Shown one piece after another: positions 1 to 26,762 of a stretch of DNA of 32,000 bases. Each line of letters opens with the position of its first letter. Within the stretch, counting starts at the first letter, position 1. The stretch covers positions 690,001 through 722,000 of the forward strand of contig CP064992.1 in the NCBI GenBank assembly GCA_016699935.1, written 5' to 3'. The translations under genes and the position numbers were made by a program. The DNA comes from Candidatus Saccharimonadota bacterium (GTDB lineage: Bacteria > Patescibacteriota > Saccharimonadia > Saccharimonadales > UBA4665). A model generated the notes under the pieces. The model searched no databases, was not told the origin of the DNA, and worked only from the letters and a program-made list of their open reading frames with translations.

Positions 1-261
1 CCAGTACTACACTGCTTTGTACTAATGCCGGTGTCATCTCTACCTGTGATGCCACAGTTGTTGCCCCAACAGCTACTAACTTCATTCAGAACCAAACAGC
101 CTCCACCCAAACAGCTGGCTTCAAGATCGATGGTACTGGTACAGCCGGTACCTTAGTCAGTACGACTGCTGTCAAGCCCGCTGTTTGACACCGCCACAGG
201 CGTAGCTTTAAACATCGGTACCACCAATGCCACCCAGATTAACCTCAATCAAAACACTGTC

Positions 262-1341
262 GTGGCAGCTGGTAAAACCATCCGTATCACAGGCGACACT
301 CGTACCAACATCAATGCCATTGGTTCACCCACAGAAGGCATGATGACGTACGACACAACAAACAAGCAGCTCCTCACCTACTCTAACGGCAAATGGCAAG
401 CTGACCGAAGCGAAGCCATCTTGGTTGCCGCCAGTGACAGCTCAGATGCCGACAAAGCCTCAGCTGACTATGTAGCTGATGGTAACACTGGTGCAGCCCT
501 TGATGGTGACCAAGTGCAGATCAACGACGCTCTTACGGCTGCCAGTGCTTCAGGTACCCGTAAGACCGGTAAGGTTTACCTCTTCGCTGGTACGTACACT
601 GCTGATGCCACTATCCTCATCCCGAACGGTGTTACCCTCGCTGGTAGTGGTCAAAGCTCAGTCATAAAACTGGCAGACATTGATGCGACCGACAACCTCA
701 TCGAAAACAGTGACACGGCAACTGGTGCCAACATCACTATTCGTGACCTCCGCCTAGAAGGTCAACGCAACCTCAACACGGCTGGCACCCAGCACGGTAT
801 CTACCTGCTCGGCATGGGCAAAGAAACCAGCGGCAACAACGCCGTCAACGGCGCCTTCATTAGTAACGTCACCGTCTACTACTTCCGCACCGATGGTATC
901 CGCCTCGATACCTCCTCTCACAACACGATTACCAGCAGCATCTTCCGAGACAATGAGCAGTATGGTCTCTACATCCTGAATGTAAACTCCAAGTTCAACA
1001 GCATCACCGCTAACCAGTCAGAAGGCAACAACGTCGACGGCTTCCGACTCGAATCTGGCTACAGCAACACCTTCAGTGGTAACGTTGCCTACGACAATAC
1101 TTCGGCCGGTATGGCTATAGCCGGCAGCGCCAATAACAACAACATCGTCAATAACAACTTCCGCGGCAACAATGCCTATGGTATCTATGTCGGTGCTTCG
1201 ACCCTGAACAACATCAGCTCAAACAACATCCGGGGTGGTAGCACCTACGGTATCTATGTTTCTGGCTCAGACGGCAACACGGTAACGACAACAACATCTA
1301 TGACACTGGTAGCGCAACAACCAACAACGCTATCTACTTGA
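262..1341 (+). CDS. Gene A fragment: junction motif plus right-handed parallel beta-helix cassette A1 (pectate-lyase/NosD-like fold)
   Basis: TEGMMTYDTTNKQLLTYSNGKWQADRS is followed by stacked beta-helix rungs (NITIRDLRLEG, NTITSSIFRDN, NSITANQSEGN, NTFSGNVAYDN, NNIVNNNFRGN, NNISSNNIRGG). Nearly identical at nt level to 19022-19940 of gene C. The frame is open upstream to ~157. It ends through a 1-nt slip (ggtaacgac at ~1283 versus ggtaaacgac in C). Confidence 0.85.
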   Translation: MAAGKTIRITGDTRTNINAIGSPTEGMMTYDTTNKQLLTYSNGKWQADRSEAILVAASDSSDADKASADYVADGNTGAALDGDQVQINDALTAASASGTRKTGKVYLFAGTYTADATILIPNGVTLAGSGQSSVIKLADIDATDNLIENSDTATGANITIRDLRLEGQRNLNTAGTQHGIYLLGMGKETSGNNAVNGAFISNVTVYYFRTDGIRLDTSSHNTITSSIFRDNEQYGLYILNVNSKFNSITANQSEGNNVDGFRLESGYSNTFSGNVAYDNTSAGMAIAGSANNNNIVNNNFRGNNAYGIYVGASTLNNISSNNIRGGSTYGIYVSGSDGNTVTTTTSMTLVAQQPTTLST

Positions 1342-1952
1342 CTGATTCTGATCGTAACAGCATTAATGGCAACGTGATCGATGACACCTCAGCATCCACT
1401 AACAACTACGCCATCAATATCTTCAATAGCACCAGCAACAGTAACTACATATCTGGAAACATCCTCGGCGATAACGGTGCCGGTGTCACAGCTACCATTA
1501 ACGATGCTGCGACAGACACTACCTACGGTGGCCAGGCTACCGCCCTCAGCAGCACCGACATCCTCTTCAAACAGTCGGCTTCAACGGCCGCCTTCCAGAT
1601 CAAAATGCCAATGGCACCAGTATATTGAACATTGACTCAACAAACGGAGAACTTGAAGTCGGTAGCTACAATGGTGGTACTAACCCGGTAGCCGGTAAGA
1701 TAGTTATAGCTACTACTGCCAATGCCAATACTGTCACCCTGCAGTCGTCTACTCAGACTGGTAACTACACCCTCAGCATCCCAGCCTAACAGCTAATGCC
1801 AATGCATGTACCGACAACGCTATCTGCTCTGGTTACCTTGGCACTAGCACTGGTGTTCAGCTACAAGCTGCTACTCCTGGCACAGCTCAGACAGGTCACT
1901 TCAACATTACAGGTACAGGGATAGCTGGCACTAGCCTCCTCACCCCACTGCT
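389..1952. repeat. Copy 1 of ~1.56 kb near-identical beta-helix cassette (partner 18988-20557)
   Basis: Base-by-base comparison at offset 18601-18604 shows only scattered substitutions (e.g. 826-840, 981, 1134, 1548). There are three 1-nt length differences (~1283, ~1600, ~1787). Identity falls off after ~1950. Confidence 0.9.
1338..1628 (+). CDS. Gene A fragment: distal rungs of beta-helix A1
   Basis: DSDRNSINGNVIDDTSASTNNYAINIFNSTSNSNYISGNILGDNGAGV matches gene C residues encoded at ~19940-20230. It ends at a slip (gatcaaaatgcc versus gatccaaaatgc in C). Confidence 0.7.
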   Translation: MTDSDRNSINGNVIDDTSASTNNYAINIFNSTSNSNYISGNILGDNGAGVTATINDAATDTTYGGQATALSSTDILFKQSASTAAFQIKMPMAPVY

Positions 1953-1993
1953 GAACACCGCCACAGCCGTAGCCCTGAACATAGGCACCAACA

Positions 1994-2437
1994 ATGCCTC
2001 GTCAATTGATCTCAAAAGAATGTAAACATTGCTGCCAGCAAAACATTACCTTCGTTGCTGGCACAGGCGGCTTCGACCAACACAACTCTTCCGGCACCTT
2101 CCAAGCAGGAACAGGTGCCGTCAGCTTGAATGGAGATACGACGGTAGCCAGTGGCAAGAACCTGACTGTCACCAGTGGTACTACGGCACTGACTGGTACC
2201 ACCAACATAAACACTTCAGGTGCAGCCACCACCAGCATCGGTACTGGCACTGGCAATAACAGCATTGGTAATACCACAGGTACTCTTGGCCTAACCGGTA
2301 GTACAGTCACGGTTGCAGGCACCACTAGTATTAATACAACCGGTACCGGTACGACTACCATTGGCTCAGTCACGGCTGGTGCCGTTAGCATTACTTCAAT
2401 GCAGCTAGTAGCTTCACGACTAATACCGGTGCTCTAA
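1994..2437 (+). CDS. Gene A fragment: Thr/Gly-rich fibre repeat (only ~2035-2398 is in the true frame)
   Basis: QNITFVAGTGGFDQ...TGAVSLNGDTTVASGKNLTVTSGTTALTGTTNINTSGAATTSIGTGTGNNSIGNTTGTLGLTGSTVTVAG. Duplicated at 3006-3395. The Met-proximal codons are an out-of-frame artefact. Confidence 0.65.
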   Translation: MPRQLISKECKHCCQQNITFVAGTGGFDQHNSSGTFQAGTGAVSLNGDTTVASGKNLTVTSGTTALTGTTNINTSGAATTSIGTGTGNNSIGNTTGTLGLTGSTVTVAGTTSINTTGTGTTTIGSVTAGAVSITSMQLVASRLIPVL

Positions 2438-2438
2438 C

Positions 2439-2717
2439 CTGACCAGTGCCGCTGCTACCACCTGGAGCACAACGGCTGGTGCCCTAACACTGCAGGGTGC
2501 AGCTGGTGCTACCATTCGGTCGGCTGCTGGTGCGACATCCAGTGATGTCACCATAACTACCGGCGATGCCTCTGCTGGAGCCAGTGGTAACATCACCATA
2601 GATACTGGTACCTATACTAGTGGTACTCCTACTGTGAACATTGGAACAGGTGTCGCTGGTGCAGTTACCATCGGACGAGCTACCACCACCACTACTATCA
2701 AGGCTCTACCAAAGTAA
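2439..2717 (+). CDS. Gene A fragment without ATG (absent from ORF track)
   Basis: Own translation gives LTSAAATTWSTTAGALTLQGAAGATIRSAAGATSSDVTITTGDASAGASGNITIDTGTYTSGTPTVNIGTGVAGAVTIGRATTTTTIK. This continues ...NTGALT from the preceding fragment after a slip at acctg (~2438). Confidence 0.5.
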   Translation: MTSAAATTWSTTAGALTLQGAAGATIRSAAGATSSDVTITTGDASAGASGNITIDTGTYTSGTPTVNIGTGVAGAVTIGRATTTTTIKALPK

Positions 2718-2732
2718 CACCTCAGACATCGA

Positions 2733-3395
2733 CCAGTACTACACTGCTTTGTACTAATGCCGGTGTCATCTCTACCTGTGATGCCACAGTTGTTGCCCCA
2801 ACAGCTACTAACTTCATCAGAACCAAACAGCCTCCACCCAAACAGCTGGCTTCAAGATCGATGGTACTGGTACAGCCGGTACCTTAGTCGGTACGACTGC
2901 TGTCCAAGCCCGCTGTTTGACACCGCCACAGGCGTAGCTTTAAACATCGGTACCACCAATGCCACCCAGATTAACCTCAACAAAAACGTCAGTATTGCCG
3001 CCAACCAAAACATCACCTTCGTCGCCGGCACAGGCAACTTCGACCAATCAGCTAGCACCGGCACCTTCCAAACAGGAACAGGTGCCGTCAGCTTGAATGG
3101 AGATACGACAGTAGCCAGTGGCAAGAACCTGACTGTCACCAGTGGTACTACGGCACTGACCGGTACCACCAACATAAACACTTCAGGTGCTGCCACCACC
3201 AGCATCGGTACTGGCACTGGCAATAACAGCATTGGTAATACCACAGGTACCCTTGGCCTAACCGGTAGTACAGTCACGGTTGCAGGTAATACTAGTATTA
3301 ACACCACCGGTACCGGTACGACTACCATAGGCTCAGTCACAGCTGGTGCTGTTAGCATAACTTCAATGCTGCTAGTAGCATCACGACTAATACAG
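2733..3395. repeat. Composite internal duplicate in gene A: 2733-2981 matches 1-250, and 3006-3395 matches 2040-2430
   Basis: The strings match almost exactly (ccagtactacactgctttgtactaatgccggtgtcatctctacctgtgatgcc... at both 1 and 2733). The second unit lacks the ~1.75 kb beta-helix block that separates the two parts in the first unit. Confidence 0.85.
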
Positions 3396-3503
3396 GTAAC
3401 CTTACTCTTGACTCAGCAGCTGTACTGCAGCTGGGCGCTGCCAACGCCACAAGTATACTTATCGGTAAAACTGCTACTACGGCCACAGTCCAGGGCAGCT
3501 TGA
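2757..3503 (+). CDS. Gene A fragment (true frame only ~2905-3365): linker plus second copy of the Thr/Gly fibre repeat
   Basis: From SPLFDTATGVALNIGTTNATQINLNKNVSIAANQNITFVAGTGNFDQ... it parallels 181-250 and 2040-2398. The first ~50 and last ~45 codons are out-of-frame read-through. Confidence 0.55.
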   Translation: MPVSSLPVMPQLLPQQLLTSSEPNSLHPNSWLQDRWYWYSRYLSRYDCCPSPLFDTATGVALNIGTTNATQINLNKNVSIAANQNITFVAGTGNFDQSASTGTFQTGTGAVSLNGDTTVASGKNLTVTSGTTALTGTTNINTSGAATTSIGTGTGNNSIGNTTGTLGLTGSTVTVAGNTSINTTGTGTTTIGSVTAGAVSITSMLLVASRLIQVTLLLTQQLYCSWALPTPQVYLSVKLLLRPQSRAA

Positions 3504-4186
3504 CAGTCGGTGCCTCAGCCGGCACGGGTACATTTACTAACAACGGCGCCACGATTAATACCGAAAAGACTTATGGTGACTTTGCGGCAAGTGGCGCCAT
3601 GGATACAGCTGCTAACTCAGTAGATAAATATACTTACTTCAGCATTGGCCAGACGACTACCGGACGAACCATCACACTTCCAACACCAACAACCAGCCCA
3701 ACCTCTTTGTTTGGCCGTATAATTCACGTTAGCAACATCGGTAGCACAAGCTTTACTATCAGTGGATCACTCATCATGCCTGGCTATACCGCTACGTTTG
3801 TCTGGAGCAATACCGATGGTGTGGCAACTGGTGGTGAGTCATGGCAATATGCTGGAGACGGTGGTGGTTCGGGTAGCTACATCCAGAACCAAAACGCTCT
3901 GCAACAAGCTAGCAGCAATTTCTGGCTGAGTGGCACTGGCCGGGCCGATACTTCCATACTGACGCCAACGATAGACACCGCCACAGGCGTAGCCTTGAAC
4001 ATCGGCACCAGCGGCAGCCCGACAACAACACAGATCAACATAAACCAAAGCACTGTCCTGGCCTCTGGCAAAACCATCCTTGTGCTTCATAGGCGATACT
4101 CGTACCAACATCAATGCCATTGGTTCACCCACAGAAGGCATGATGACTTACGACACAACAAACAAGCAGCTCCTAACCTACGCTAA
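3500..4186 (+). CDS. Gene A fragment: spacer domain and linker module
   Basis: The frame is open upstream to ~3364 (SNAASSITTNTGNLTLDSAAVLQLGAANATSILIGK...). It contains YIQNQNALQQASSNFWLSGTG...LTPTIDTATGVALNIGTSGSPTTTQININQ, a linker module that recurs at least 5 times in genes A and C. Confidence 0.7.
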   Translation: MTVGASAGTGTFTNNGATINTEKTYGDFAASGAMDTAANSVDKYTYFSIGQTTTGRTITLPTPTTSPTSLFGRIIHVSNIGSTSFTISGSLIMPGYTATFVWSNTDGVATGGESWQYAGDGGGSGSYIQNQNALQQASSNFWLSGTGRADTSILTPTIDTATGVALNIGTSGSPTTTQININQSTVLASGKTILVLHRRYSYQHQCHWFTHRRHDDLRHNKQAAPNLR

Positions 4187-5351
4187 TGGCAAATGGCAAG
4201 CAGATAGATCCGACGCCGTACTTGTAGCTGCCAGCAACTCCAGTGAAGCCGACAAAGCTGCAGCAGATTATGTAGCAACCGGTTCGGGTGACCAGACAAC
4301 TATCCAGAGTGCCCTCGATAGTGCCGACCCGTCTGCTGGCACTCGAAAAAGCGGCAAGGTCTTGCTTTTTGCCGGTACCTACACGGTGACAGACACTATC
4401 AACATACCCGACAACACCACATTGACTGGTGCTGGCCGGGGCAGCCTTATCCAATTTGGTAATATCGCTGGCCAAAACAAAAACATGATTCAAAATAAGA
4501 ATACAACGGCAAGTACTGGTCTTGTACTTCGCGATATCCGACTCGACGGTAACAAGGCAACAAACACAACTGGCACGCAGCATGGCGTATATCTGCTTTC
4601 ATCAACGTTCCCAGGCTCAGGGGCAGGTGCTCGTATCGGCTCAGTAGTCCAAAACGTATGGGTGAGCAACTTTAGATCTAACGGCATATATGTACATAAC
4701 CAGTCCGGCAATAGCAACATTAGTAATAACATGGTGCAAGACAACGCAGCTATCGGTATCGCCGTGCAATCCGCACACGCAAATAACGTTACAAACAACT
4801 ATGTTGTTGGTAATGCTACTGACGGCATATGGGTATCTGGCTCCAGCTACAACGTAATAAGTATGAATAACGTCAATTCCAATACAAACCGAGGAATAGT
4901 CGTCGACGGTAGCGCGAACAGCAACACAATCAACAGCAATGCTCTAAAAGACAACGGCACCGGAACTGAAGCTAGTATTCTAGTGTTAAATGCTGCAACG
5001 ACACTTATTTCCAATAACGCGATTACAGATAATACCGGCGCATCTGCTTACGCAATAGACATTGATCCAACTGCTACAAACGTGTATATAGCCAACAACT
5101 CTTTAGTGGGTACGGCGGTTACGAACGGTGTGAGAGATCAGGGTACAAATACGACAATAGGTGGCCAGCTGAATAATGTTATGGGTACAGGGTCGTATGT
5201 TATCCAAAACGCTGGAGGTGTATCAATAAGTAGTTCTAACAAAGCTGTTTCCAGCGCAGTAAGCATTCAAAGCGGTAATAGCACGGCTGGTACCGCTGCT
5301 ACTGTAAGCATAGATACTGGTACAAGTACTGGAGTGGTACAAGCAATATAA
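4080..5351 (+). CDS. Gene A fragment: junction motif plus second, divergent beta-helix cassette A2
   Basis: IGDTRTNINAIGSPTEGMMTYDTTNKQLLTYANGKWQADRS (nt 4092-4202, close to 292-402) is followed by a different set of rungs: LVLRDIRLDGN, VQNVWVSNFRSNG, NSNISNNMVQDN, NNVTNNYVVGN, YNVISMNNVNSN, NSNTINSNALKDN, TTLISNNAITDN. Confidence 0.85.
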   Translation: MCFIGDTRTNINAIGSPTEGMMTYDTTNKQLLTYANGKWQADRSDAVLVAASNSSEADKAAADYVATGSGDQTTIQSALDSADPSAGTRKSGKVLLFAGTYTVTDTINIPDNTTLTGAGRGSLIQFGNIAGQNKNMIQNKNTTASTGLVLRDIRLDGNKATNTTGTQHGVYLLSSTFPGSGAGARIGSVVQNVWVSNFRSNGIYVHNQSGNSNISNNMVQDNAAIGIAVQSAHANNVTNNYVVGNATDGIWVSGSSYNVISMNNVNSNTNRGIVVDGSANSNTINSNALKDNGTGTEASILVLNAATTLISNNAITDNTGASAYAIDIDPTATNVYIANNSLVGTAVTNGVRDQGTNTTIGGQLNNVMGTGSYVIQNAGGVSISSSNKAVSSAVSIQSGNSTAGTAATVSIDTGTSTGVVQAI

Positions 5352-5452
5352 ATATAGGCACAACAAACGCTGGGGCGGTAACAATCGGAAAAGCAGCTGG
5401 CACAACAGCAATAAACCTAAAATCTAGCACAATAAACGTTGGTATCGCTACG

Positions 5453-6901
5453 GTGGCAACGACTATTCAGGGTGTAACGCAGACTACAGCTGCAACAGCC
5501 GGTGCGGCACTTACTATTCAGGGTTCTACTGGCAATACAACTGGGGCAGGTGGCATTGTAACAATTGTGGGTGGAACGGGCGGTGCAACCAACGCCAACG
5601 GCGGTAACTTAGTGCTGAGTGGTGGCGCCAAAACTGGCGCAGGTACTCAGGGCTTGGTAACGATCTCCACGAGTGCATTTACATCTTCTACTACCCAAAG
5701 TTTCGGAAGCTCTGCAAGCCTTACGGCAGGCTTAGTCGATCAGTACAGTAGCATACCTGTAACCGCAACAGCGTCTGGAGTTACCGTAACTATACCTGCG
5801 CCAGCTGCTGTAAACCAAGTAGTTGGTAGATTGCTATATGTCGCAAACGTGGGCGTAACAAACGACTTCAACATTTTATTAACTGGCACAAGCGTAACTG
5901 TGGCGCTCAAACCGAATAGTACGGCAACACTTATATGGAATGGCAACGGCTGGACGGCAGCTGGCGCATCGAGTGCGACTGACCTTCAGGCTGCTTATAA
6001 CAACACACAGACGAGTGCTGGTGGGGCGGAAATTGTTCTTAGATCTACCCTTGATACGCCAACGGGCACGGGAGGATTAACCATTCGAAATAATGACACG
6101 CTACCAATTTCTGGCGGGTTGCTCGAAATACAAAGTTCTATTGGCACAAACCTCTTTAGCGTCAACGGCTATGGTAGTGAGTTAGCTGCCAATGGTGGCG
6201 CAGAAACAAAGGGTGTCAGCGACATCACCTTCCCAGCAAGTACTTGGAGTAGCCAGAACACTGGTGCTGTTAGCCGTACGATAACTTCTGGGGAATTCCA
6301 AACGGGTATTGCTGGAGTAAAGATTGGCACCACAGGCTCCAACCAGGGTGCACGCAACCAGTTGACAGCCAACCCAGTCGCGAGCACCACCTACACGGTG
6401 TCATTCACGGCGGCGTCTAGCACAGCTGGCACAGGCACCACACCTATAGAAGTCATCTACTCACCCGATAACGGTACGACCCTTACCAACCTATGCCAAG
6501 GATACGGCAATGGTTTTACAAACTCTCGTACGATTTCCAACTACACAACAGTCAACTGGACGAAGGTGACATGTACCGTTACTACGACCGGTGCGGCCGT
6601 AACGACACCGCTACTCATCATCCGTCAAACAGATGCTACTACCCGGACTATTTACGTCGATAACCTCAGTATGATCCGTAACGATGCAACAACACGGCCA
6701 TCCAGTGTCCAAATCGGCGGCGGCAACACTGGTGGCCAGGTAACACTCTTTACCTTTGACCGATCCAGCGCGGCCCCGCTTGTGTCTGGTAGTGATGATC
6801 GTTATCTCGGCTCTATGTATTACGACACGACACTTGGCAACATCAATGTTACGAAGCCGATGGTTGGGGAGCTTGTGGTAGTGCGCCAGATAATATCGTG
6901 A
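5453..6901 (+). CDS. Gene A fragment: Gly/Thr spacer, CBM4/9 (CenC)-like carbohydrate-binding-type module, junction motif
   Basis: ELAANGGAETKG...STWSSQNTGAVSRTITSGEFQTG...TTYTVSFTAAS...VNWTKVTCTVTT...RTIYVDNLSM (~6145-6675) follows the pattern of CBM_4_9 modules. It ends ...GSMYYDTTLG at a slip. Confidence 0.85.
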   Translation: MATTIQGVTQTTAATAGAALTIQGSTGNTTGAGGIVTIVGGTGGATNANGGNLVLSGGAKTGAGTQGLVTISTSAFTSSTTQSFGSSASLTAGLVDQYSSIPVTATASGVTVTIPAPAAVNQVVGRLLYVANVGVTNDFNILLTGTSVTVALKPNSTATLIWNGNGWTAAGASSATDLQAAYNNTQTSAGGAEIVLRSTLDTPTGTGGLTIRNNDTLPISGGLLEIQSSIGTNLFSVNGYGSELAANGGAETKGVSDITFPASTWSSQNTGAVSRTITSGEFQTGIAGVKIGTTGSNQGARNQLTANPVASTTYTVSFTAASSTAGTGTTPIEVIYSPDNGTTLTNLCQGYGNGFTNSRTISNYTTVNWTKVTCTVTTTGAAVTTPLLIIRQTDATTRTIYVDNLSMIRNDATTRPSSVQIGGGNTGGQVTLFTFDRSSAAPLVSGSDDRYLGSMYYDTTLGNINVTKPMVGELVVVRQIIS

Positions 6902-7437
6902 CTTTGACGCCAGAATATTCAAACGCCGTACTAAGTGCGCCAGGAACTTTGGGTGGTAGCTTTACTGCTACTGGCGTGGGTACACTGACGGCCGACTTCT
7001 GCTCCAACCAGGGTAGTGTTCTTCAGGTCAACACCAGCTTCTGTGCATCTGGCATTGCCCGCAACTACTACCGCTGGACTTCACCGCAGGCCAGCCCTCA
7101 GACATACAGTATTTATGTGTCTTACAAGTTGCCCAGTACGTTCAAGGGCTTTTATGATGACAATACCATCAAGCTAACTGGCCTGCGCGATCATGCGACC
7201 AATTCGACAGCAGCACTAAGTGTCTTCAGGAGTACTGGTAGTGCAGTGACACAATGTGGATCGACCACCACAGTCACAACAAGTACCAGCAACTGGACGA
7301 CGACTAGTTTAACAGGTAACGAAACTTCGTGTAGTTTTGCCGCCAGTGACGTTGTGCTCTTCAAGATTGATGTTACGGCTCAAAGCAATGCCAACGTTTA
7401 TATAGAAAACCTTGAGTTTAGGTATACCAATAAGTAA
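6898..7437 (+). CDS. Gene A fragment: C-terminal ~180-aa domain
   Basis: It continues the junction motif (HQCYEADGWGACGSAPDNIV|TLTPEYS...). The sequence alternates in a beta-strand-like way and ends ...VYIENLEFRYTNK, followed by TAA. Confidence 0.8.
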   Translation: MTLTPEYSNAVLSAPGTLGGSFTATGVGTLTADFCSNQGSVLQVNTSFCASGIARNYYRWTSPQASPQTYSIYVSYKLPSTFKGFYDDNTIKLTGLRDHATNSTAALSVFRSTGSAVTQCGSTTTVTTSTSNWTTTSLTGNETSCSFAASDVVLFKIDVTAQSNANVYIENLEFRYTNK

Positions 7438-7852: not shown

Positions 7853-7864
7853 CCAGGGGAAACA

Positions 7865-8878: not shown

Positions 8879-8893
8879 TTGCAGATGAAAGAT

Positions 8894-12122: not shown

Positions 12123-12328
12123 TAGCCTGGCAGGGTGGACTGTATCGGCTGGGTGGTTGCATAAGCCAAAATGGCACTACAGGGGTGTGTGATAACACGA
12201 TATCGGCCTACGAATATGGTGTCGTGAACCAAGATGGCGATGCCAGCACGGTCAGCAACTCGAGCCGAGTGGAACAGCGCCGTGTAGTGGGGTACTCCGA
12301 TAAACTGCGACCTTCCTCCAGCAGGTGA
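12119..12328 (+). CDS. Gene B fragment 3: Kelch-type blade
   Basis: AWQGGLYRLGGCISQNGTTGVCDNTISAYEYGVVNQDGD. The frame is open upstream to ~12090 (PDGSRSGYNL). Confidence 0.6.
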   Translation: MIAWQGGLYRLGGCISQNGTTGVCDNTISAYEYGVVNQDGDASTVSNSSRVEQRRVVGYSDKLRPSSSR

Positions 12329-12361
12329 TGGCGCGGGGCAAGGCGGCCAAATGTCTCTAGC

Positions 12362-12568
12362 ATGGTTGTGGTCAATAACGGATTTATTTATAACATCGGT
12401 GGTTGCGTCGCTCCAGCCAGTGCATGCAACACAAACATGAGTGGCAATATTTCTTATGCCGAGCTAAATAGTGATGGTAAATGGCAAAACCTGCTACCTG
12501 TGGTGGCACATCATATGGTCTTTGGTGTGTTGATAGTACAAATAAGATTAATGGAGCTAACGGTTTAG
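12362..12568 (+). CDS. Gene B fragment 4: Kelch-type blade (correct frame only to ~12478)
   Basis: VVNNGFIYNIGGCVAPASACNTNMSGNISYAELNSDGK. The frame then slips into that of 12481-14517. Confidence 0.55.
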   Translation: MVVVNNGFIYNIGGCVAPASACNTNMSGNISYAELNSDGKWQNLLPVVAHHMVFGVLIVQIRLMELTV

Positions 12569-15047: not shown

Positions 15048-15149
15048 AGCAGAATTTAAACGCAGCAATGAGCTGAGACGAAGATGCGTGGGAAGCGTGG
15101 CTGGGTGAAGAAAGCTCAAAAAAGCTATTAAACCAAAAAACCCTGCAAT

Positions 15150-16054: not shown

Positions 16055-16094
16055 GCATGTAAATAATTTGTACGATCGTACAAATTATTTACAT
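16055..16094. promoter_or_regulatory. Perfect 40-bp palindrome P2, related to P1
   Basis: catgtaaataatttgtacga|tcgtacaaattatttacatg, a perfect 20+20 palindrome. It shares ATGTAAA...TACGATCGTA...TTTACAT with P1. Confidence 0.6.
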
Positions 16095-16116
16095 GGTTGA
16101 AAATCATGTCGTGAGT

Positions 16117-16216
16117 CGGAGGTTGGACTCGGAGGTTGGGAGATAGGGGTTGGGAGTTAGGGGTTTGGGAGTTAGGGTGTTGGGAGATAGGGGTTGGGAG
16201 TTAGGCGAGTGGGAGG
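16117..16216. repeat. G-rich 14-15 bp tandem repeat (~7 units, consensus GGGTTGGGAGWTAG)
   Basis: ggaggttggactc ggaggttgggagatag gggttgggagttag gggtttgggagttag ggtgttgggagatag gggttgggagttag gcgagtgggaggtg. There are at least 10 GGG/GGGG tracts on the + strand. Confidence 0.85.
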
Positions 16217-16388: not shown

Positions 16389-17182
16389 ATGCTAGAGTTA
16401 TGGACATCAGGAATTTTCGTAAAATCAGAATTAGACGAAGAAGCGTGGGAAGCGTGGCTGGGTGAAGAAACCTCAAAAAAGCTAGTAAGCCAAAACAGCC
16501 AGCCAAAATTCATACACCATCCCAGGTGAAATCAATAGATGGTTTGGCCATCCCGGGTGAAACAAGTTGACCAAGTGACGCATAAAAAGCCAAGAAAAAT
16601 CAGGCGCTGCAACCATATCTATTCAAATACATATGCCAAAGTTTCAGTTGCCGTCATGGCGACCACGCAAAGTACATCTGCCGTGGCAGCAGATGAAACC
16701 ATGGCTGATTGGCCTAGGGCTCATGGCGTTGGTAATTGTTGGAGGTAAACTGCTGCTAGGCAAAGCAACCATGAACAAACCAAACACGGTCAAAACACCG
16801 GTGGTGGTACAAACCGAACTGGGCTACAAGCCGGTGCTACCAGAGGTGCGGGCTGCCACAGAAACGCAGCCAACCAAACCAAATATGACGAAAAACGTAA
16901 GCTTTACAGCTTTAATGACACGTATAAGGGGCAAAATTACTGTAGATCGGCAGTCGCTGCCCGAAAAGTTGACTAGAAAAGTGAAATAGTAAAACTAGCG
17001 GATAAGCTTGCAAATGACTGAGGTATTTACCACAACTATTGGTGAAGTGAGAATGTCTACCAGTAAAGAAACAGGTGCACAGCGACTGATGGTGACGAAG
17101 TAGTAAAATGCTAATGTTTATCCAGAGCACCACCAAACTTTCCATTACAGAGTGGGTAGATTACATACAATCCCTGGAATAA
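16389..17182 (+). CDS. Membrane-anchored hypothetical protein, reconstructed across several slips (start uncertain: 16299 or 16389)
   Basis: MLELWTSGIFVKSELDEEAWEAWLGEETSKKLVSQNSQPKFIHHPR | SIDGLAIPG... | ...MPKFQLPSWRPRKVHLPWQQMKPWLIGLGLMALVIVGGKLLL (TM segment; ORF-track 16633-16989) ...ITVDRQSLPEKL | EIVKLADKLAND | EVFTTTIGEVRMSTSKETGAQRLMV | SSKMLMFIQSTTKLSITEWVDYIQSLE, then stop. The architecture resembles the 22866-23366 product. Confidence 0.45.
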
Positions 17183-17605: not shown

Positions 17606-20600
17606 ATGAAAAGGCCAACAAACATACTCGTACTGTTTGTGCATACCCTCTGGCACCCGGCCAAGAGGGGTTTTGTCGTCCCTAGCTACCGAACCAACCA
17701 CCCCTTCACTCATCTCAGCTGGTCCCATGGTCACATGAGCTCAAAGTCTGTCAGTCAAGTGCTGTTAGTCTTGCTCATCCTACCCTTGTTTTTCCTCACG
17801 CGCGGGTACACAGGCGCACCACGCGCCTATGCCGCCACATCCGACAACCTGAACTTCCAAGCTCGTTTGCAAACTGCCTCTGGTGCGATTGTCGCTGATG
17901 GCTACTACAACATCGAGTTCAAGCTCTACAGTGCTGCTTCTGGTGGTAGCTCTCTGTGGGATGAAACCTACAGCTACAGCTCTGGCTCTGGTCAGTGTAG
18001 CGGCCCCTTGGGCACCAATGACTGCCGTGTCCGAGTAGCCAATGGCTACGTCACCGTCAACCTAGGCACAGTCACCAGCTTCCCAGGCACCATGCCCTGG
18101 GATCAGCAGCTCTACCTGACCATGAACGTAGGTGGTACCACCAGCTCTGGAGCCATTACCTACGACGGAGAGATGAACCCCAGGCTGAAGATGACGGCTG
18201 TCCCCTATGCCTTCAACGCCAAGACAGCCAGCAGTTTAGCCACGAGTAATGGAGCCCTGCAGTCTACTCTGAGCATTGTCGCGCCTACAGGCGGCAACCA
18301 AACCTTCCAAATACCGGATCAAGGTGCCGGAGGAACTTATACGCTACTTACAGGTAGTGCCGCAAACGGCATGTATATTCAGCTGCAAAGCTCAACTCCG
18401 GGGACACAACAAACCGGTAACTTCAACATCAGTGGCACAGGTATAGCTGCCACTTTGCAGGCGCAAACTATCGACACTTCATCTGCCAGTGTGTTGAGTT
18501 TGGGCGTTAGCAATGCCACAAATATACAAGTAGGCAGCAATACAACTGATGCAACAGCAAAACTCTTTATCCTAGATAGTTATAATGGTGGGACTGATCC
18601 AACGGGATACAACGGGGCGATGTACTACAATACCAGCTTGAGTAAATTTCGCTGCTATGTTGGTGGTGCATGGCTCGATTGCGAGGGCTCAGCTGGGTCA
18701 GGCGTAACAACTATCGGAGCCATAGATTCCCAGACGAAAAGTGCCAACGGTGCAGTTATAAGTGGCACTACTATATATATGCAGACAGCAGATGCAACAA
18801 ATCCTGGTCTCGTGAGTACGGGATCTCAAACATTTGCTGGAGACAAAACGTATTCTGGCAATATCATAGTTTCGGGCAATCAAAGCATAACTGTCACTGG
18901 TGGCGCCACCGGCACCCGCCCAGTCAGCCCCACAGAAGGCATGGTCTACTACGACACGACTACGAAACAACTCTTGACGTACGCCAATGGCAAATGGCAA
19001 GCTGACCGAAGCGAAGCCATCTTGGTTGCCGCCAGTGACAGCTCAGATGCCGACAAAGCCTCAGCTGACTATGTAGCTGATGGTAACACTGGTGCAGCCC
19101 TTGATGGTGACCAAGTGCAGATCAACGACGCTCTTACGGCTGCCAGTGCTTCAGGTACCCGTAAGACCGGTAAGGTTTACCTCTTCGCTGGTACGTACAC
19201 TGCTGATGCCACTATCCTCATCCCGAACGGTGTTACCCTCGCTGGTAGTGGTCAAAGCTCAGTCATAAAACTGGCAGACATTGATGCGACCGACAACCTC
19301 ATCGAAAACAGTGACACGGCAACTGGTGCCAACATCACTATTCGTGACCTCCGCCTAGAAGGTCAACGCAACCTCAACACGGCTGGCACGCAGCACGGTA
19401 TCTACCTGCTCGGCATGGGCAAAGAAACAACCGGCAACAATGCCGTCAACGGCGCCTTCATTAGTAACGTCACCGTCTACTACTTCCGCACCGATGGTAT
19501 CCGCCTCGATACCTCCTCTCACAACACGATTACCAGCAGCATCTTCCGAGACAATGAGCAGTATGGTCTCTACATCCTGAATCTAAACTCCAAGTTCAAC
19601 AGCATCACCGCCAACCAGTCAGAAGGCAACAACGTCGACGGCTTCCGACTCGAATCTGGCTACAGCAACACCTTCAGTGGTAACGTTGCCTACGACAATA
19701 CTTCGGCCGGTATGGCTATAGCCGGCAGCGCCAATAGCAACAACATCGTCAATAACAACTTCCGCGGCAACAATGCCTATGGTATCTATGTCGGTGCTTC
19801 GACCCTGAACAACATCAGCTCAAACAACATCCGGGGTGGTAGCACCTACGGTATCTATGTTTCTGGCTCAGACGGCAACACGGTAAACGACAACAACATC
19901 TATGACACTGGTAGCGCAACAACCAACAACGCTATCTACTTGACTGATTCTGATCGTAACAGCATTAATGGCAACGTGATCGATGACACCTCAGCATCCA
20001 CTAACAACTACGCCATCAATATCTTCAATAGCACCAGCAACAGTAACTACATATCTGGAAACATCCTCGGCGATAACGGTGCCGGTGTCACAGCTACCAT
20101 TAACGATGCTGCCACAGACACTACCTACGGTGGCCAGGCTACCGCCCTCAACAGCACCGACATCCTCTTCAAACAGTCGGCTTCAACTGCCGCTTTCCAG
20201 ATCCAAAATGCTAACGGCACCAGTATATTGAACATTGACTCAACAAACGGAGAACTAGAAGTCGGTAGTTACAATGGCGGCACTAACCCAGTAGCCGGTA
20301 AGATCGTTATAGCTACTACTGCCAATGCCAACACAGTTACTCTGCAGTCGGCTACTCAGACTGGTAACTACACCCTCAGCATCCCAGCCCTAACAGCTAA
20401 TGCCAATGTATGTACCGACAACGCTATCTGCTCTGGTTACCTTGGTACTAGCACTGGTGTCCAACTGCAAGCTGCTACTCCTGGCACAGCCCAGACAGGC
20501 CACTTCAACATCACTGGTACAGGCATAGCCGGTACTAGCCTCCTCACCCCACTGCTAGACACTGCAACTGGTGTACCTCTCAACATCGGCACCAGCGGCG

Positions 20601-20818
20601 GCCCGACAACTACTCAGATCAACCTCAACCAAAATGTGGTGGTCGCAAATGACAAATCAATCATCATTGGTTCTACATCAGGCATAGGAAATGCAACAGC
20701 CTTGCAGGTGAACTATGGTTCAACCCAAATCTTTACAGTAGATTCATCAGCCGGCAACAACCGTGTAACAGTGGGATCACCAGGTGACTGTATCAATCAG
20801 GGGGTAAATTCTGCATAG
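17606..20818 (+). CDS. Gene C fragment 1: signal peptide, N-terminal fibre domain, two junction motifs, beta-helix cassette, linker modules
   Basis: The likely true start is Met at 17735 (MSSKSVSQVLLVLLILPLFFLTRGYTGAPRAYA). Then NLNFQARLQTASGAIVADGYYNIEFKLYSAASGGSSLWDE..., GAMYYNTSLSKFRCYVGGAWLDC (18614-18688), TEGMVYYDTTTKQLLTYANGKWQADRS, and a beta-helix at 19045-20135. This 3.2 kb ORF is uninterrupted. Confidence 0.9.
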   Translation: MKRPTNILVLFVHTLWHPAKRGFVVPSYRTNHPFTHLSWSHGHMSSKSVSQVLLVLLILPLFFLTRGYTGAPRAYAATSDNLNFQARLQTASGAIVADGYYNIEFKLYSAASGGSSLWDETYSYSSGSGQCSGPLGTNDCRVRVANGYVTVNLGTVTSFPGTMPWDQQLYLTMNVGGTTSSGAITYDGEMNPRLKMTAVPYAFNAKTASSLATSNGALQSTLSIVAPTGGNQTFQIPDQGAGGTYTLLTGSAANGMYIQLQSSTPGTQQTGNFNISGTGIAATLQAQTIDTSSASVLSLGVSNATNIQVGSNTTDATAKLFILDSYNGGTDPTGYNGAMYYNTSLSKFRCYVGGAWLDCEGSAGSGVTTIGAIDSQTKSANGAVISGTTIYMQTADATNPGLVSTGSQTFAGDKTYSGNIIVSGNQSITVTGGATGTRPVSPTEGMVYYDTTTKQLLTYANGKWQADRSEAILVAASDSSDADKASADYVADGNTGAALDGDQVQINDALTAASASGTRKTGKVYLFAGTYTADATILIPNGVTLAGSGQSSVIKLADIDATDNLIENSDTATGANITIRDLRLEGQRNLNTAGTQHGIYLLGMGKETTGNNAVNGAFISNVTVYYFRTDGIRLDTSSHNTITSSIFRDNEQYGLYILNLNSKFNSITANQSEGNNVDGFRLESGYSNTFSGNVAYDNTSAGMAIAGSANSNNIVNNNFRGNNAYGIYVGASTLNNISSNNIRGGSTYGIYVSGSDGNTVNDNNIYDTGSATTNNAIYLTDSDRNSINGNVIDDTSASTNNYAINIFNSTSNSNYISGNILGDNGAGVTATINDAATDTTYGGQATALNSTDILFKQSASTAAFQIQNANGTSILNIDSTNGELEVGSYNGGTNPVAGKIVIATTANANTVTLQSATQTGNYTLSIPALTANANVCTDNAICSGYLGTSTGVQLQAATPGTAQTGHFNITGTGIAGTSLLTPLLDTATGVPLNIGTSGGPTTTQINLNQNVVVANDKSIIIGSTSGIGNATALQVNYGSTQIFTVDSSAGNNRVTVGSPGDCINQGVNSA
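18988..20557. repeat. Copy 2 of ~1.56 kb near-identical beta-helix cassette (partner 389-1952)
   Basis: See 389-1952. This copy is frame-intact. Confidence 0.9.
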
Positions 20819-20865
20819 TACAAACAGCAAGCGGTGTAGGCCCAGCCGTAAACCAGAACAATACC

Positions 20866-21096
20866 ATGAAAATATCAAGTGGTGCGACGGTAAATACCTC
20901 ATATGCCCAGGTGATATATTTGCAAGACACCAGTTCGGCAGCGAGTCTCGGCTATGGACTTTTGGTTGATATGACACAAACAACGAACAATAATGCTACA
21001 GCAAATGCTATAACAGCAACCGCTCGTACACAAAACGCTGGCAACTTGTTGCTATTGAACACCGGGGGAACAGGCTACGGCGGAGTAGGGGAATAA
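20866..21096 (+). CDS. Gene C fragment 2
   Basis: The frame is open upstream to ~20806. ISSGATVNTSYAQVIYLQDTSSAASLGYGLLVDMTQTTNNNATANAITATARTQNAGNLLLLNTGGTGYGG. Confidence 0.6.
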   Translation: MKISSGATVNTSYAQVIYLQDTSSAASLGYGLLVDMTQTTNNNATANAITATARTQNAGNLLLLNTGGTGYGGVGE

Positions 21097-21896
21097 ATGG
21101 TGGCACAAATGTCTTTACAGTCAGTAATACAGGTGTAGTTACTAGTAAAAACCAAGCGAATAGCACTTCGGCATTTCGTATCCAAAATACAAACGGCACT
21201 AATCTACTAAACGTAAACACTACCAATGGTGAAATAGGACTCGGTAGCTACAATGGTGGTACCAACCCTGTAGCTGGCAAGATAGTCCTTGCTAATGCCG
21301 CCAATGCCAGTACAGTTACTCTCCAAACTGGTGCCACCGGTACTAGCTACAGCCTGACGCTGCCGACTGCCCTAGGTTCAACCGGACAGTGCCTATACGA
21401 CACAACTGGGGCTGGGGTGCTCGGCTGGGCGACGTGTGCTGGTGGTAGTGGCATCAACAACGGCACGACGACCCAAACTGCTAACTTCAACATTCAGTCA
21501 GCTGCGAGTGGTTCGATTGGTGCGATCGTCCAAGGTGCAGCCAGTCAAAGTGTCGATATTTTCCAGGTGAAACTTTCTGGCGGCAACATACCATTCAGTA
21601 TTAGTAGCACTGGAGATGTCAATTTGTTGCGGAATACGCTGTATATGAACACCACGACAACTAACTCTAAACGGATATACATTTCGGGCAATATCAACTC
21701 TGGCGTTGCTAGCCAATACGGCATCCAGAACGAACCGATCTTCTTACCTTCTGCTGGGTCAAACAACATATACGGCTTAAGCAACACAGCAAAACTGGCA
21801 ACAAGTGCAGTCAATATCAATCAGTTGTTTGGCAGCGTAACGGGCGTATCAACGAATGCGGATTACACGGGGTACTTACAGGTGCAGTTGGCTTAA
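21096..21896 (+). CDS. Gene C fragment 3 (ORF track lists only 21417-21896)
   Basis: NGGTNVFTVSNTGVVTSKNQANSTSAFRIQNTNGTNLLNVNTTNGEIGLGSYNGGTNPVAGKIVLANAANASTVTLQTGATGTSYSLTLP parallels FQIQNANGTSILNIDSTNGELEVGSYNGGTNPVAGKIVIATTANANTVTLQS in A and C. Confidence 0.65.
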   Translation, partial: NGGTNVFTVSNTGVVTSKNQANSTSAFRIQNTNGTNLLNVNTTNGEIGLGSYNGGTNPVAGKIVLANAANASTVTLQTGATGTSYSLTLPTALGSTGQCLYDTTGAGVLGWATCAGGSGINNGTTTQTANFNIQSAASGSIGAIVQGAASQSVDIFQVKLSGGNIPFSISSTGDVNLLRNTLYMNTTTTNSKRIYISGNINSGVASQYGIQNEPIFLPSAGSNNIYGLSNTAKLATSAVNINQLFGSVTGVSTNADYTGYLQVQLA

Positions 21897-21913
21897 ACAT
21901 CCAAGACCCTTCA

Positions 21914-22846
21914 ATGGCTGGTAGTAAGGCGGCGACATACTACGGAATATCTATCAACGGTGTTACGGGGAATGGTGGTAATACGACAGGCAATATTCAA
22001 AACACCCAACTTCTCATAGGTGGCACTACAGTTGGAGCTGGTGCTGGTGGTACGGTTTACAACATGGGACAAAGAATTGTGATGCCGTCTGGCTCTGGTG
22101 GAACAACGCACAACACCGGGCTGGCAATCACAGACGCCCAGGCGACAATAACGGGCACTTGGTCACTCTATAACGCCAGTGCGCAAGCAAGCTATTTTGG
22201 CAGTAATGTGACCATAGGCACGCTACTAACTGCCGATGTTACTAACGGCAATGTCCAAATAGGCTCCGCCACCACTAACGCCACCGCCAATCAATTCATC
22301 TTAGACAGCTACAATAACGCCACTGACCCGACTGGGACAAACGGTGCCATGTACTACAACACCGCAACCGGCACATTCCGTTGCTACGAAAACAGTGCCT
22401 GGAAGGACTGCCTGACACGCCATATTACGACTCTCGGCAGTGATGTCACGAACAACAACGCCACTGCTAACACCATCGCAGACGTCACAGGACTAAGTTT
22501 TGCAGTCACATCAGGCAAGACCTACCGATTCCGTGCCAATGTCGCTTACACCGCGGCAGCCACCACCACTGGCTCGCGCTGGAGCGTCAATGGTCCTGCT
22601 AACACATTACTGACCTATACCTCGCGCTATGGCATTACCGCTACCACAGAAACCGTGAACTATCTCGCCGCCTACGATTCACCAGCGGCAAGCAACAGTG
22701 ATTCTCCAGCAACCGGCGGAAACACGGCGACCATAGAGGGTATAGTGACACCATCTGCGAATGGAACGGTGATCATACGGTTTGCCTCGGAAGTCTCGAG
22801 CTCTGCGATTGTCGCCAAGGCCGGAAGCACTATAGAGTGGTGGTAG
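21914..22846 (+). CDS. Gene C fragment 4: junction motif plus C-terminal beta-sandwich-like domain
   Basis: FILDSYNNATDPTGTNGAMYYNTATGTFRCYENSAWKDC (22344-22412), then ...GKTYRFRANVAYTAAATTTGSRWSVNGPA...GTVIIRFASEVSSSAIVAKAGSTIEWW, followed by a stop. Confidence 0.8.
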   Translation: MAGSKAATYYGISINGVTGNGGNTTGNIQNTQLLIGGTTVGAGAGGTVYNMGQRIVMPSGSGGTTHNTGLAITDAQATITGTWSLYNASAQASYFGSNVTIGTLLTADVTNGNVQIGSATTNATANQFILDSYNNATDPTGTNGAMYYNTATGTFRCYENSAWKDCLTRHITTLGSDVTNNNATANTIADVTGLSFAVTSGKTYRFRANVAYTAAATTTGSRWSVNGPANTLLTYTSRYGITATTETVNYLAAYDSPAASNSDSPATGGNTATIEGIVTPSANGTVIIRFASEVSSSAIVAKAGSTIEWW

Positions 22847-23442: not shown

Positions 23443-23485
23443 CCAAAACCACCGGGTACGACCCATATCGACAGGGTCGTACCCG
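23443..23485. repeat. REP hairpin, left copy
   Basis: ccaaaaccacc-GGGTACGACCC-atatcgaca-GGGTCGTACCC-g: an 11-bp perfect stem with a 9-nt loop. Confidence 0.85.
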
Positions 23486-23516
23486 CTCGGTTGACAGGGT
23501 GGTGTATTATGGTGAT

Positions 23517-24138
23517 ATGCCATCACGTAATATCTATAAAGAATATGTCGAACAGACGTACTATCATGTCTACAACCGAGGCGTGAACAAAGAAAGAACG
23601 GATATTTCTCGATGAACAAGATTACCTGACGTTTATTGCTCTCATCGAACGCTATATGGGTCTGCGGGCTAGTAGGCGGCAAAATGGCAGTAAATATGAA
23701 AACTTTGACGGTAGATTAGACATTTTGGCCTATTGTCTTATGCCAAATCATTTTCACTTTTTTATATATCAGTACGATGAAAAAGCTATGTATGAGTTTT
23801 TCAAACGGATCACGGTATCATACAGTATGTACTTCAATGAACGCTATAAGCGAGTTGGCCCAGTCTTTCAGCAGCGATATCGCGCATCGCTAATCTATTC
23901 GGACGAGTATTTTTTGCATATTTCCCGCTATATTCATCTCAATCCCCGTGAATGGGCTAGCTAATGGTGGTCGAGTATACATGACTATACAGGTCATAGT
24001 ATTACGACTTGGGTACATCCAGAAAAAGTTCTAGAACATTTCAATGACGGGGCAAAGGAATATACTGAGTTCGTTGCCGACTATGAATCAGCTCACCGCG
24101 AGCTAGAACACATACAACACATTCTGGCTGATCGCTAA
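23517..24138 (+). CDS. REP-associated tyrosine transposase (RAYT, IS200-like Y1/HUH family), with one slip (~23590) and one in-frame TAA (23962-23964)
   Basis: MPSRNIYKEYVEQTYYHVYNRGVNKE | RIFLDEQDYLTFIALIERY...LDILAYCLMPNHFHFFIYQ (HUH motif) ...YSMYFNERYKRVGPVFQQRYRASLIYSDEYFLHISRYIHLNP (catalytic Tyr context) REWAS*WWSSIHDYTG...HILADR. The ORF-track pieces are 23433-23615 and 23656-23964. Confidence 0.75.
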
Positions 24139-24164
24139 TACCAAGGTACTGCAATTAAACCAAC

Positions 24165-24207
24165 CGGGTACGACCCTGTCGATATGGGTCGTACCCGGTG
24201 GTTTTGG
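24165..24207. repeat. REP hairpin, right copy (inverted)
   Basis: c-GGGTACGACCC-tgtcgatat-GGGTCGTACCC-ggtggttttgg, the exact reverse complement of 23443-23485. Confidence 0.85.
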
Positions 24208-25104: not shown

Positions 25105-25865
25105 ATGGCGTTTATCATCGCTATAACCAATCAAAAGGGAGGAGTCGGCAAAACAACGACAGCTGTAAATATAGCCGCTCAACTGGCAACGAATAAGCGC
25201 CGGGTGCTTTTGGTTGACCTCGATCCTCAGGGTAATGCTACTAGTAGCCTGGGTATCGACAAAGCAGCTTTGCCGGCAACATTGTACGACGTACTAGTTG
25301 GCGATAGCACCGTGGCAAAGATAGTCCTACCGACAAAAGTAGCAAATCTTTTCATATTGCCAGCAAATAGTAGCCTGGTTCAGGCCGAAGTTGATTTAGT
25401 AAGTATGACGCAGCGTGAGTTTCGGCTAAAAGACAAGCTGGCTAATGTTGACGCAGATATCATAATCATTGATTGTCCGCCAGCACTTGGTCTGCTGACT
25501 GTCAATGCTCTTACTGCCGCAAATGGCGTTCTCATACCTGTGCAGTCAGAATATTTTGCCCTAGAGGGACTAAGTGAACTCATGAATACGATTCGGTTGG
25601 TGCGAGGTGGTTTGAATCCAGATCTCGACCTGTTTGGTGTCGTCCTGACGATGTTCAATAAGCGCACCGTGCTAAGTGAGCAAGTTTTGGCAGAAGTAAG
25701 ACAGCATTTTGGCGAAAAGTTTTCAAAACTGTCATACCTCGAAATGTCCGTCTGGCTGAAGCGCCAAGTTATGGAAAGACCATCTTTGAGCATGATAAAT
25801 GGAGCAAAGGTGCGAGGGCGTACAAAGCACTAGCTCAGGAGGTAGCAAAACGTGGCAGCTTCTAA
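25105..25865 (+). CDS. parA: ParA/Soj chromosome-partitioning ATPase (slip in A-run 25715-25718)
   Basis: Deviant Walker A (KGGVGKTT), DLDPQGNAT and IIIDCPP. After GEK the next frame gives the canonical tail VFKTVIPRNVRLAEAPSYGKTIFEHDKWSKGARAYKALAQEVAKRGSF. An RBS (ggaagaggg) precedes the ATG. Confidence 0.9.
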
Positions 25866-26717: not shown

Positions 26718-26762
26718 GTTGGCACTAGTTCCCGTGCCTCACACTGGTTCTTGCAGTGCTTT

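Follow-up and report, generated by a model that had tools for sequence, protein, structure and literature searches.

The stretch of DNA analyzed here, referred to below as the window, comprises 32,000 nucleotides (nt) from a Candidatus Saccharimonadota bacterium (CP064992.1, positions 690,001 to 722,000) and carries two paralogous genes, gene A and gene C, that share a nearly identical cassette for a β-helix module. It stems from the circular metagenome-assembled genome (MAG) Hirt_18-Q3-R61-65_BATAC.98_uni, a member of the Saccharimonadales (f__UBA4665; g__GCA-2746885) recovered from activated sludge in Denmark and covered 6.05x by Illumina and 13.5x by Nanopore reads (Singleton et al. 2021, Supplementary Data 3; PRJNA629478), which was obtained through hybrid reassembly with Unicycler (PMC8012365, methods). 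As assembled, the locus of gene A consists of open segments that overlap one another and change frame, with ~13 frame breaks in all. Because homologues from other Saccharibacteria, endowed with two β-helices and the same C-terminal domain, align straight across these breaks, we regard the locus as the 3' part of one giant gene, which encodes the two β-helix modules A1 and A2 and ends in a C-terminal domain typical of the family (6799-7437). The truncated open reading frame (ORF) of A1 (262-1341) is identical to QQS17889.1, its out-of-frame tail included; gene C corresponds to QQS17906.1. The N-terminal hydrophobic helix encoded by gene C fits a signal peptide. Judged by the frame order f2>f1>f3>f2 and by homologue alignments, gene C probably continues past the end of its intact ORF at 20818, through three -1 frame breaks, into a second type of C-terminal domain that ends at 22846.

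The gene C protein matches the profiles NosD (89.4 bits, cut-off 23.6, E=2.9e-25) and Beta_helix (67.3 bits, cut-off 25.9, E=1.6e-18); both profiles also match A2, and TIGR03804 repeats match too. An AlphaFold2 (AF2) model reaches a predicted local distance difference test (pLDDT) value above 90 over residues 470-820 of gene C, which are arranged in regular three-strand coils, and the cassette is accordingly predicted to form a right-handed parallel β-helix. A Foldseek search with this model returned 141 PDB matches at E<=1e-3, and all the matches listed are β-helix proteins. The A-modules of AlgE6 and AlgE4 came out on top (TM 0.71-0.77, E ~1e-11), followed by Geobacillus virus E2 ORF18, phi29 gp12, the tailspikes of CBA120, Sf6 and Det7, GH87 glucanases, polysaccharide lyases and the adhesin PfbA. 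At the sequence level, the PDB matches are confined to alginate/mannuronan C5-epimerases (E ~1e-7, identity 21-24%). Judged by these models and matches, the cassette would belong to the polysaccharide-binding or polysaccharide-processing type of β-helix. The Azotobacter AlgE C5-epimerases are thus its best structural match, and they are likewise built of repeated A-modules. They differ from the proteins studied here by their RTX-type R-modules, by the low sequence identity just given, and by the DPH residues: in a phmmer alignment to 8xfq, the epimerase segment YGFDPHE, which we take to be the catalytic motif YG(F/I)DPH(D/E) of AlgE, stands opposite YYFRTDGIRLD. We therefore rejected AlgE-like catalysis. 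Relatives of the cassette are numerous among the cluster representatives of the library searched (234 at E<=1e-30, 2138 at E<=1e-3). Many of these proteins measure 2000-5900 aa (the longest 5952 aa), a single protein can show as many as 14 matched stretches, and many homologues hold two β-helices in one protein.

Self-BLASTN of the whole window aligned 328-1990 with 18929-20594 (95.98% identity over 1666 columns, 3 gaps), and a base-level alignment of copies A1 and C resolved within this match a cassette of ~1.57 kb with 97.6% identity. The repeat proposed in the original prediction is consequently real, and the boundaries given there, 389-1952 and 18988-20557, are right to within 1-2 nt. The two copies are direct repeats, 18.6 kb apart, in contexts that are unique and unlike each other on both sides. 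Upstream of the joint the two copies have diverged, as had been claimed: identity amounts to 70.7% between 331-388 and 18932-18989 and to 57.7% for 292-388, and the codons of a conserved protein motif, J, differ at 27.9% of positions between the copies (328-388), with the last upstream mismatch at A387/C18988. Past 1953/20557, divergence rises to ~27% and the alignment is soon lost. The near-identity of the cassettes held up as well, but not as the uniform 1-2 differences per 100 nt that had been estimated by eye; it follows a gradient. An exact run of 400 nt opens the cassette (389-788 = 18990-19389, 0 differences), the next 792 nt (789-1580) contain nine substitutions and one indel (1.1%), and the last 373 nt (1581-1953) contain 28 substitutions and two indels (7.5%).

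The nature of these differences is informative in its own right. Thirty-one of the 37 substitutions (84%) are synonymous in the frame of gene C and fall on third codon positions, and a count over the substitution list gives a ratio of transitions to transversions of ~2:1. Synonymous differences in the three consecutive zones number 0, 5 and 26; the last zone has just two nonsynonymous ones beside its 26, and synonymous divergence in the 3' third of the cassette is roughly 0.3. The two encoded proteins differ by six amino acids. Copy A1 also departs from copy C by three 1-nt deletions, near 1284, 1601 and 1785 (AAA>AA, CC>C, CCC>CC), which break its frame. Since 26 of the 28 substitutions between 1581 and 1953 are synonymous, downstream of the first of these "frameshifts", A1 has evolved as a coding sequence. 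Purifying selection acted on both copies of the cassette.

Three-way tests of informative sites located three breakpoints. In the comparison of A1, A2 and C, 30 of the 32 informative sites upstream of 384 group A1 with A2, and from 402 on 47 out of 47 group A1 with C (Fisher p=9e-20). The 5' breakpoint is thereby confined to 385-401, to the codons AAC GGC AAA TGG CAA GCT (N G K W Q A), and 14 nt at this position, GGCAAATGGCAAGC, are identical in A1, A2 and C. As had been proposed, β-helices would be swapped at a recombination joint formed by the NGKWQADRS codons; this breakpoint supports the proposal, and so does the same joint in a second genome (see below). Its converse for A1 and A2 also stands, as the two are 94.6% identical upstream of the joint (105/111; 292-402 versus 4092-4202) and drop to ~52% directly after it. 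They are not, however, unrelated beyond GKWQAD, as had been stated; the sequences that follow encode homologous β-helices of a different subtype, with 48.7% amino-acid identity over 304 aa between A1 and A2, and 41% between A2 and C. An equally sharp joint, absent from the original prediction, lies at the 3' end, where the breakpoint at 1951-1959 falls within a second conserved motif, M (LLTPLLDTATGV, LLTPLL(N/D)TATGV): A1 tracks C up to 1951 and the paralogous Y' segment (2909-3397) from 1959 onward (38:4 versus 13:48, p=1e-12). The third breakpoint (246-250) sits at the end of another copy of M and marks the change between X/X'-type and pre-A2-type sequence (61:0 versus 3:19, p=6e-16). In the A1 copy, the whole J-β-helix cassette is placed between two M motifs. 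Elsewhere in locus A, X' and Y' are joined directly via a single M motif, without a β-helix between them, and this X'-Y' unit is the "empty site" version of the X-cassette-Y arrangement. The coordinates of all these features are compiled in Table 1.

The consensus of J reads PTEGMxYYDTTxKQLLTYxNGKWQADRS, and that of M LLTPLLDTATGVxLNIGT. Across 28 distinct module instances, J is nearly invariant as a protein, and its four-fold codons use all synonymous variants. Because synonymous sites vary this freely, J reflects a constraint on the protein and not a recombination signal at the DNA level. One- and two-fold codons (M, W, Y, D, N, K, Q, E) abound in J, and paralogues within a genome therefore keep a short identical stretch of DNA at this position. 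In the AF2 model, J forms a three-stranded meander right before the confidently predicted β-helix, that is, at a domain boundary. A further, related mini-motif, GAMYYNTSLSKFRCYxGGAWxDC, occurs within gene C (18623-18673) and again within the probable extension of the gene at its 3' end (22220-22411). The regions 18488-18682 and 22220-22411 share 61.5% amino-acid identity; AF2 gives the motif a three-strand meander as in J (strands 339-358), and it recurs in many related loci. This mini-motif may be another module adapter.

Table 1. Positions in the window of genes A and C, of their β-helix cassettes, and of the flanking motifs
Feature	Position	Strand	Remarks
β-helix cassette copy A1	389..1953	+	5' module of giant gene A; NosD/Beta_helix by homology
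β-helix cassette copy C	18990..20557	+	codons ~462-984 of intact ORF 17606-20818
motif J copy A1 SPTEGMMTYDTTNKQLLTYSNGKWQADRS	325..411	+	three-way alignment; contains the 5' breakpoint 385-401
motif J copy C SPTEGMVYYDTTTKQLLTYANGKWQADRS	18926..19012	+	predicted three-stranded β-meander, strands 446-450, 455-460, 463-466
motif J copy A2	4125..4211	+	A1-like upstream (94.6%), divergent downstream
alternative β-helix module A2	4197..5350	+	Pfam NosD/Beta_helix; behind the same A1-type upstream adapter
motif M 3' of cassette A1 LLTPLLNTATAVALNIGT...	1940..2022	+	repeat family D8; 3' breakpoint 1951-1959
motif M 3' of cassette C LLTPLLDTATGVPLNIGTSGGPTTTQINLNQN	20540..20668	+	sequence comparison
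motif M 5' of A1 module	173..255	+	third breakpoint 246-250
X'-Y' unit	2733..3397	+	X' 98% to 1-255, Y' 88.6% to 1944-2430
gene A locus	1..7437	+	3' part of a giant multi-module gene truncated at the start of the window
gene C locus	17606..22846	+	ORF 17606-20818 intact (1070 aa), signal/transmembrane helix ~aa 44-77; extension past 20818 probable

A mosaic of the same build is found in an independent Saccharibacteria MAG (L005, CAVVEW010000001.1), which carries two intact neighboring genes of 1476 and 2101 aa. Module 2 in this genome is 82-98% identical to module 1 upstream and ~55% just past the W codon, and its downstream part matches module 3 of the other gene. This amounts to the same three-module mosaic, with the breakpoint (4893-4905) in the TYANGKW codons (p=1.4e-18). 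More generally, J (YYDTTTKQLLTYANGKW) precedes β-helix modules in most of the related loci fetched, a count to be read with the ascertainment caveat that one of the fetch patterns overlapped J. In another MAG (L001), the cassette of P0001 has ~81% nt identity to copy C from J onward behind an unrelated upstream linker; this different N-terminal context is consistent with transfer of a module, although as evidence it is weaker. The syntenic relative CP065016.1 (L051; 68-76% nt identity) possesses a 2854-aa multi-β-helix gene (1-3125) upstream of parAB, for which BLASTN found no match to the window or its gene C at E<=1e-10. The locus upstream of parAB is conserved in position, but its content has been turned over extensively.

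Three supported breakpoints with a switch of the nearest relative, and a heterogeneity of synonymous sites that selection cannot explain, argue for gene conversion. We consider it likely, and with good confidence, that the segment from J to M was copied between the paralogous genes A and C by ectopic homologous recombination. Both genes would encode giant secreted multi-module surface proteins in which a β-helix module is preceded by the adapter J and followed by a stalk segment ending in M, and the 1.57 kb between these motifs would have been copied non-reciprocally by recombination of the RecA type. A single event of one age is excluded because of the 0, 5 and 26 synonymous differences in the three zones. 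An older event would have spanned the whole cassette, and one or more later conversions would have re-homogenized its 5' 1.2 kb; the age gradient reflects either this succession of an old J-to-M transfer and a recent conversion of the 5' 1.2 kb, or an identity of the 5' part that was partly inflated during assembly. Conversion tracts would end in J and M because the low-degeneracy codons of these motifs (W, K, Q, N, D, Y, M, E) preserve islands of identical DNA, and the position of both motifs at domain boundaries should allow the chimeras to fold. The original prediction had spoken of a cassette exchanged between genes A and C: a module was indeed transferred at the joint, but the data speak for a non-reciprocal copy and not for an exchange. 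Nor did conversion diversify anything in the present case, as it gave two proteins the same β-helix. Diversification of surface specificity, which had been proposed as the outcome, may nevertheless be what the process yields, and its likely role would be the reassortment of glycan-binding or glycan-degrading modules at the interface between epibiont and host.

Several points weigh against this reading. Selection for foldable chimeras could, on its own, place the surviving breakpoints at J and M; homology islands and such selection would each concentrate them there, and the two are inseparable here. A copy made within the genome is indistinguishable from one imported by natural transformation from another strain, and this extends to donor and direction. 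The exact identity of the first 400 nt could in part have been inflated by repeat collapse in the hybrid assembly or by cross-mapped polishing. We hold some inflation in the 5' part of the cassette to be possible, if rather doubtful, and the mosaic itself is independent of it. Moreover, the lineage is represented by one genome only, and no relatives with more than 55% amino-acid identity were found in the genome and metagenome contigs, except for the cassette with ~81% nt identity mentioned above. Near-identical strains with alternative cassettes were likewise not found in the collections searched (contig scans and exact look-ups of window proteins).

That one or both copies of the cassette were brought in from a related strain by natural transformation, and integrated at J and M, strikes us as improbable. 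Saccharibacteria are naturally competent (PMC10633639), and the P0001 cassette documents a related module in a different N-terminal context in another MAG. As a donor, however, the paralogue 18.6 kb away is the nearest at hand, with its 97.6% identity; no closer external copy was found, and an imported copy would have been integrated at the joint by the same mechanism as an internal one.

Little credence, in our view, can also be given to the idea of a combinatorial system driven by conversion, in which cassettes bordered by J and M would serve to re-sort host-recognition or host-wall-degrading modules among giant surface proteins. It would amount to programmed host-range or surface variation in an ultra-small epibiont, with locus A as the donor array and a G-quadruplex (G4) repeat as a stimulator like the pilE G4. 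Slightly less still do we credit its stricter form, in which locus A would hold silent, frame-broken donors, gene C would be the expression site, and unidirectional conversion between J and M would switch the displayed β-helix in the manner of pilS to pilE or of vls, the nearby G4 being a possible stimulator. Copy A1 and most of locus A are indeed frame-broken in the assembly, and the ORF of gene C is intact and provided with a signal peptide; the conserved motifs on either side look like cassette borders, and the sole G4-type sequence of the window (16138-16198, at least nine G-tracts) lies 1.4 kb upstream of gene C. The frame breaks that could be traced are, however, 1-nt deletions, those pinned to a base lie in short homopolymers, and the sequence comes from a low-coverage Nanopore MAG. 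Similar breaks affect the housekeeping genes at 25105-31097, which are split by 1-nt deletions as well, with those pinned to a base located in A-runs: ParA near 25710, ParB near 26540, LepB twice (~26900-27250), the N-terminus of LytR (~27514-27830) and HtrA near 30330, with ParA and HtrA having lost one base each in an A-run. All five are intact in the syntenic CP065016, and this points to indel errors left over from Nanopore sequencing across the whole window, at a rate of ~1 per kb. The density of such deletions is ~1 per kb in the housekeeping genes and roughly one per 0.6 kb in locus A. Because housekeeping genes are broken in the same way and A1 has been under coding selection, with 26 synonymous and two nonsynonymous differences from C downstream of its first frame break, the three deletions in A1 are almost certainly Nanopore errors and not signs of pseudogenization. 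Gene C itself seems frame-broken past 20818, and homologous two-module genes are intact in both L005 and L051. Antigenic variation from silent cassettes was accordingly rejected: locus A does not present itself as a set of donor pseudogenes, as its frame breaks follow an assembly-wide density of 1-nt deletions that includes essential genes.

The noise just described raises the suspicion of an assembly artefact, either a single real cassette that was placed twice or a near-identity created by repeat collapse or polishing. The MAG was reassembled by Unicycler from low-coverage hybrid data (6x Illumina, 13.5x Nanopore) and is visibly indel-noisy, which leaves it open to such errors, and a run of 400 nt without a single difference is what a collapsed graph node is expected to produce. 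Yet the copies reside in different unique contexts on both sides, the 37 substitutions between them, with 84% synonymous changes at third positions and transitions over transversions at ~2, bear the signature of evolution and not of error, and the 3' third, 7.5% diverged, must at the least have been present twice. The same topology, furthermore, was found in the independent assembly L005. We deem an artefact as the source of the repeat highly improbable, and a full artefact unlikely. Hardly any probability attaches to a history without recombination, i.e., an old segmental duplication with strong purifying selection on the β-helix and fast divergence of the linker: J and the first β-helix coils show strong protein conservation throughout the family, but selection on the protein cannot hold synonymous sites (0 differences in 400 nt versus 26 in the last 373 nt, with saturated flanks), and A1 changes partners at the joint, from A2 upstream to C downstream, so that synonymous-site heterogeneity and three-way incongruence refute it.

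Other candidates were discarded more readily. A diversity-generating retroelement does not account for substitutions that are mostly C/T third-position transitions and not adenine-specific, nor for a repeat of 1.57 kb where ~0.1 kb would be expected; no reverse transcriptase was found among the window ORFs scanned. A site-specific recombinase or shufflon was rejected in view of direct repeats 18.6 kb apart and of motif synonymous sites that are not conserved across genomes; the one ORF that resembles a recombinase encodes a fragment of an IS200-type Y1 transposase (23656-23964) and has no relation to the joints. Nor are we dealing with a phage tailspike or prophage gene: sequence searches found no phage relatives in IMG/VR or among GenBank phages, and the neighbors are parAB, lepB, an LCP-family gene and htrA.

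The process that we favor, gene conversion between paralogues, has counterparts in several well-studied systems. In phage tailspikes of the P22, Sf6, HK620, Det7 and CBA120 type, receptor-binding β-helix domains are exchanged as modules. The analogy with tailspikes drawn in the original prediction is structurally reasonable, given the Foldseek matches to the Sf6, CBA120 and Det7 tailspikes and to phi29 gp12. As in tailspikes, a short conserved adapter precedes the β-helix, and the boundary between the two is where recombination takes place; the adapter region also has weak matches among phage virion and tailspike PHROGs and in BppL_N/DUF2793. Unlike tailspike genes, those studied here are chromosomal bacterial genes for Sec-secreted giants with several tandem modules. 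Neisseria pilE/pilS, Borrelia vlsE and Mycoplasma genitalium MgPa are examples of antigenic variation from silent cassettes. They share with the present case the conserved borders around variable cassettes, the clustering of copies and the transfer by conversion, but differ from it in that we see no sign of silent donors, find both copies under purifying selection, and observe no expression-site asymmetry. In Helicobacter pylori, gene conversion takes place between the paralogous adhesin genes babA and babB. Ectopic recombination has likewise been described for the yeast FLO genes (PMC3512402), and gene conversion between surface-antigen genes for the Plasmodium MSP paralogues (PMC10919680). 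All three resemble the situation described here in the non-reciprocal copying between full-length expressed paralogues, in mosaics with sharp breakpoints, and in tract borders that coincide with conserved sequence; they differ in that entire folded modules, set off by two dedicated motifs, are the units exchanged here.

Saccharibacteria are epibionts that attach to host bacteria. In a cultivable species, several surface adhesins and glycan-binding proteins proved essential for epibiotic growth (PMC10633639). The giant β-helix surface proteins described here are composed of whole-domain modules parted by two conserved adapter motifs, and these modules have repeatedly been moved by recombination at exactly these adapters, in at least two genomes. 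This offers a concrete route by which epibionts with tiny genomes could reassort their host-interaction modules, and it provides a practical rule for the annotation or engineering of such proteins, namely to cut them at J and M. Gene conversion between paralogues at conserved borders is a textbook mechanism; the case is new for Saccharibacteria as far as the literature was searched, in which we found no prior description of such a module conversion in Saccharibacteria or Patescibacteria.

Several other elements of the window deserve mention. Scans for Rfam families and tRNAs returned nothing. A second giant surface-protein locus (9184-14517) combines a glycine-rich low-complexity region with Kelch-type β-propeller repeats (Pfam Kelch_1 and others); it is spread over three ORFs (9184-11679, 11676-12122 and 12481-14517) and has probably been split by indel noise. 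The gap downstream of locus A contains an element present in two copies ~1 kb apart (7436-7991 and 8885-8990; 93.7% identical over 95 nt) that consists of heptamer repeats (GAGTCAT/GAGACAT) followed by TGAATCCCAAAAAAACAAACACAAAA, with a further degenerate copy at 7436-7501. A perfect palindrome of 40 nt (16056-16095) opens the apparently gene-poor stretch at 16056-16215, and a G-rich tandem repeat with a 14/29-nt unit comes next (16134-16215); this repeat harbors, on the + strand, the G4 motif mentioned above, the only canonical one in the window, and related loci contain six such motifs in 727 kb. A 71-nt direct repeat (15076-15146 and 16433-16503; 90% identical, 1357 nt apart) brackets this region. 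The Y1 transposase fragment (Pfam Y1_Tnp, E=1.3e-8) is IS200-like and lacks its N-terminal part. It is bracketed by 50-nt inverted repeats (23443-23492 and 24158-24207; 96% complementary) that hold hairpin-like palindromes of the sequence GGGTACGACCC, and the stretch from 23443 to 24207 may thus represent a small mobile element.

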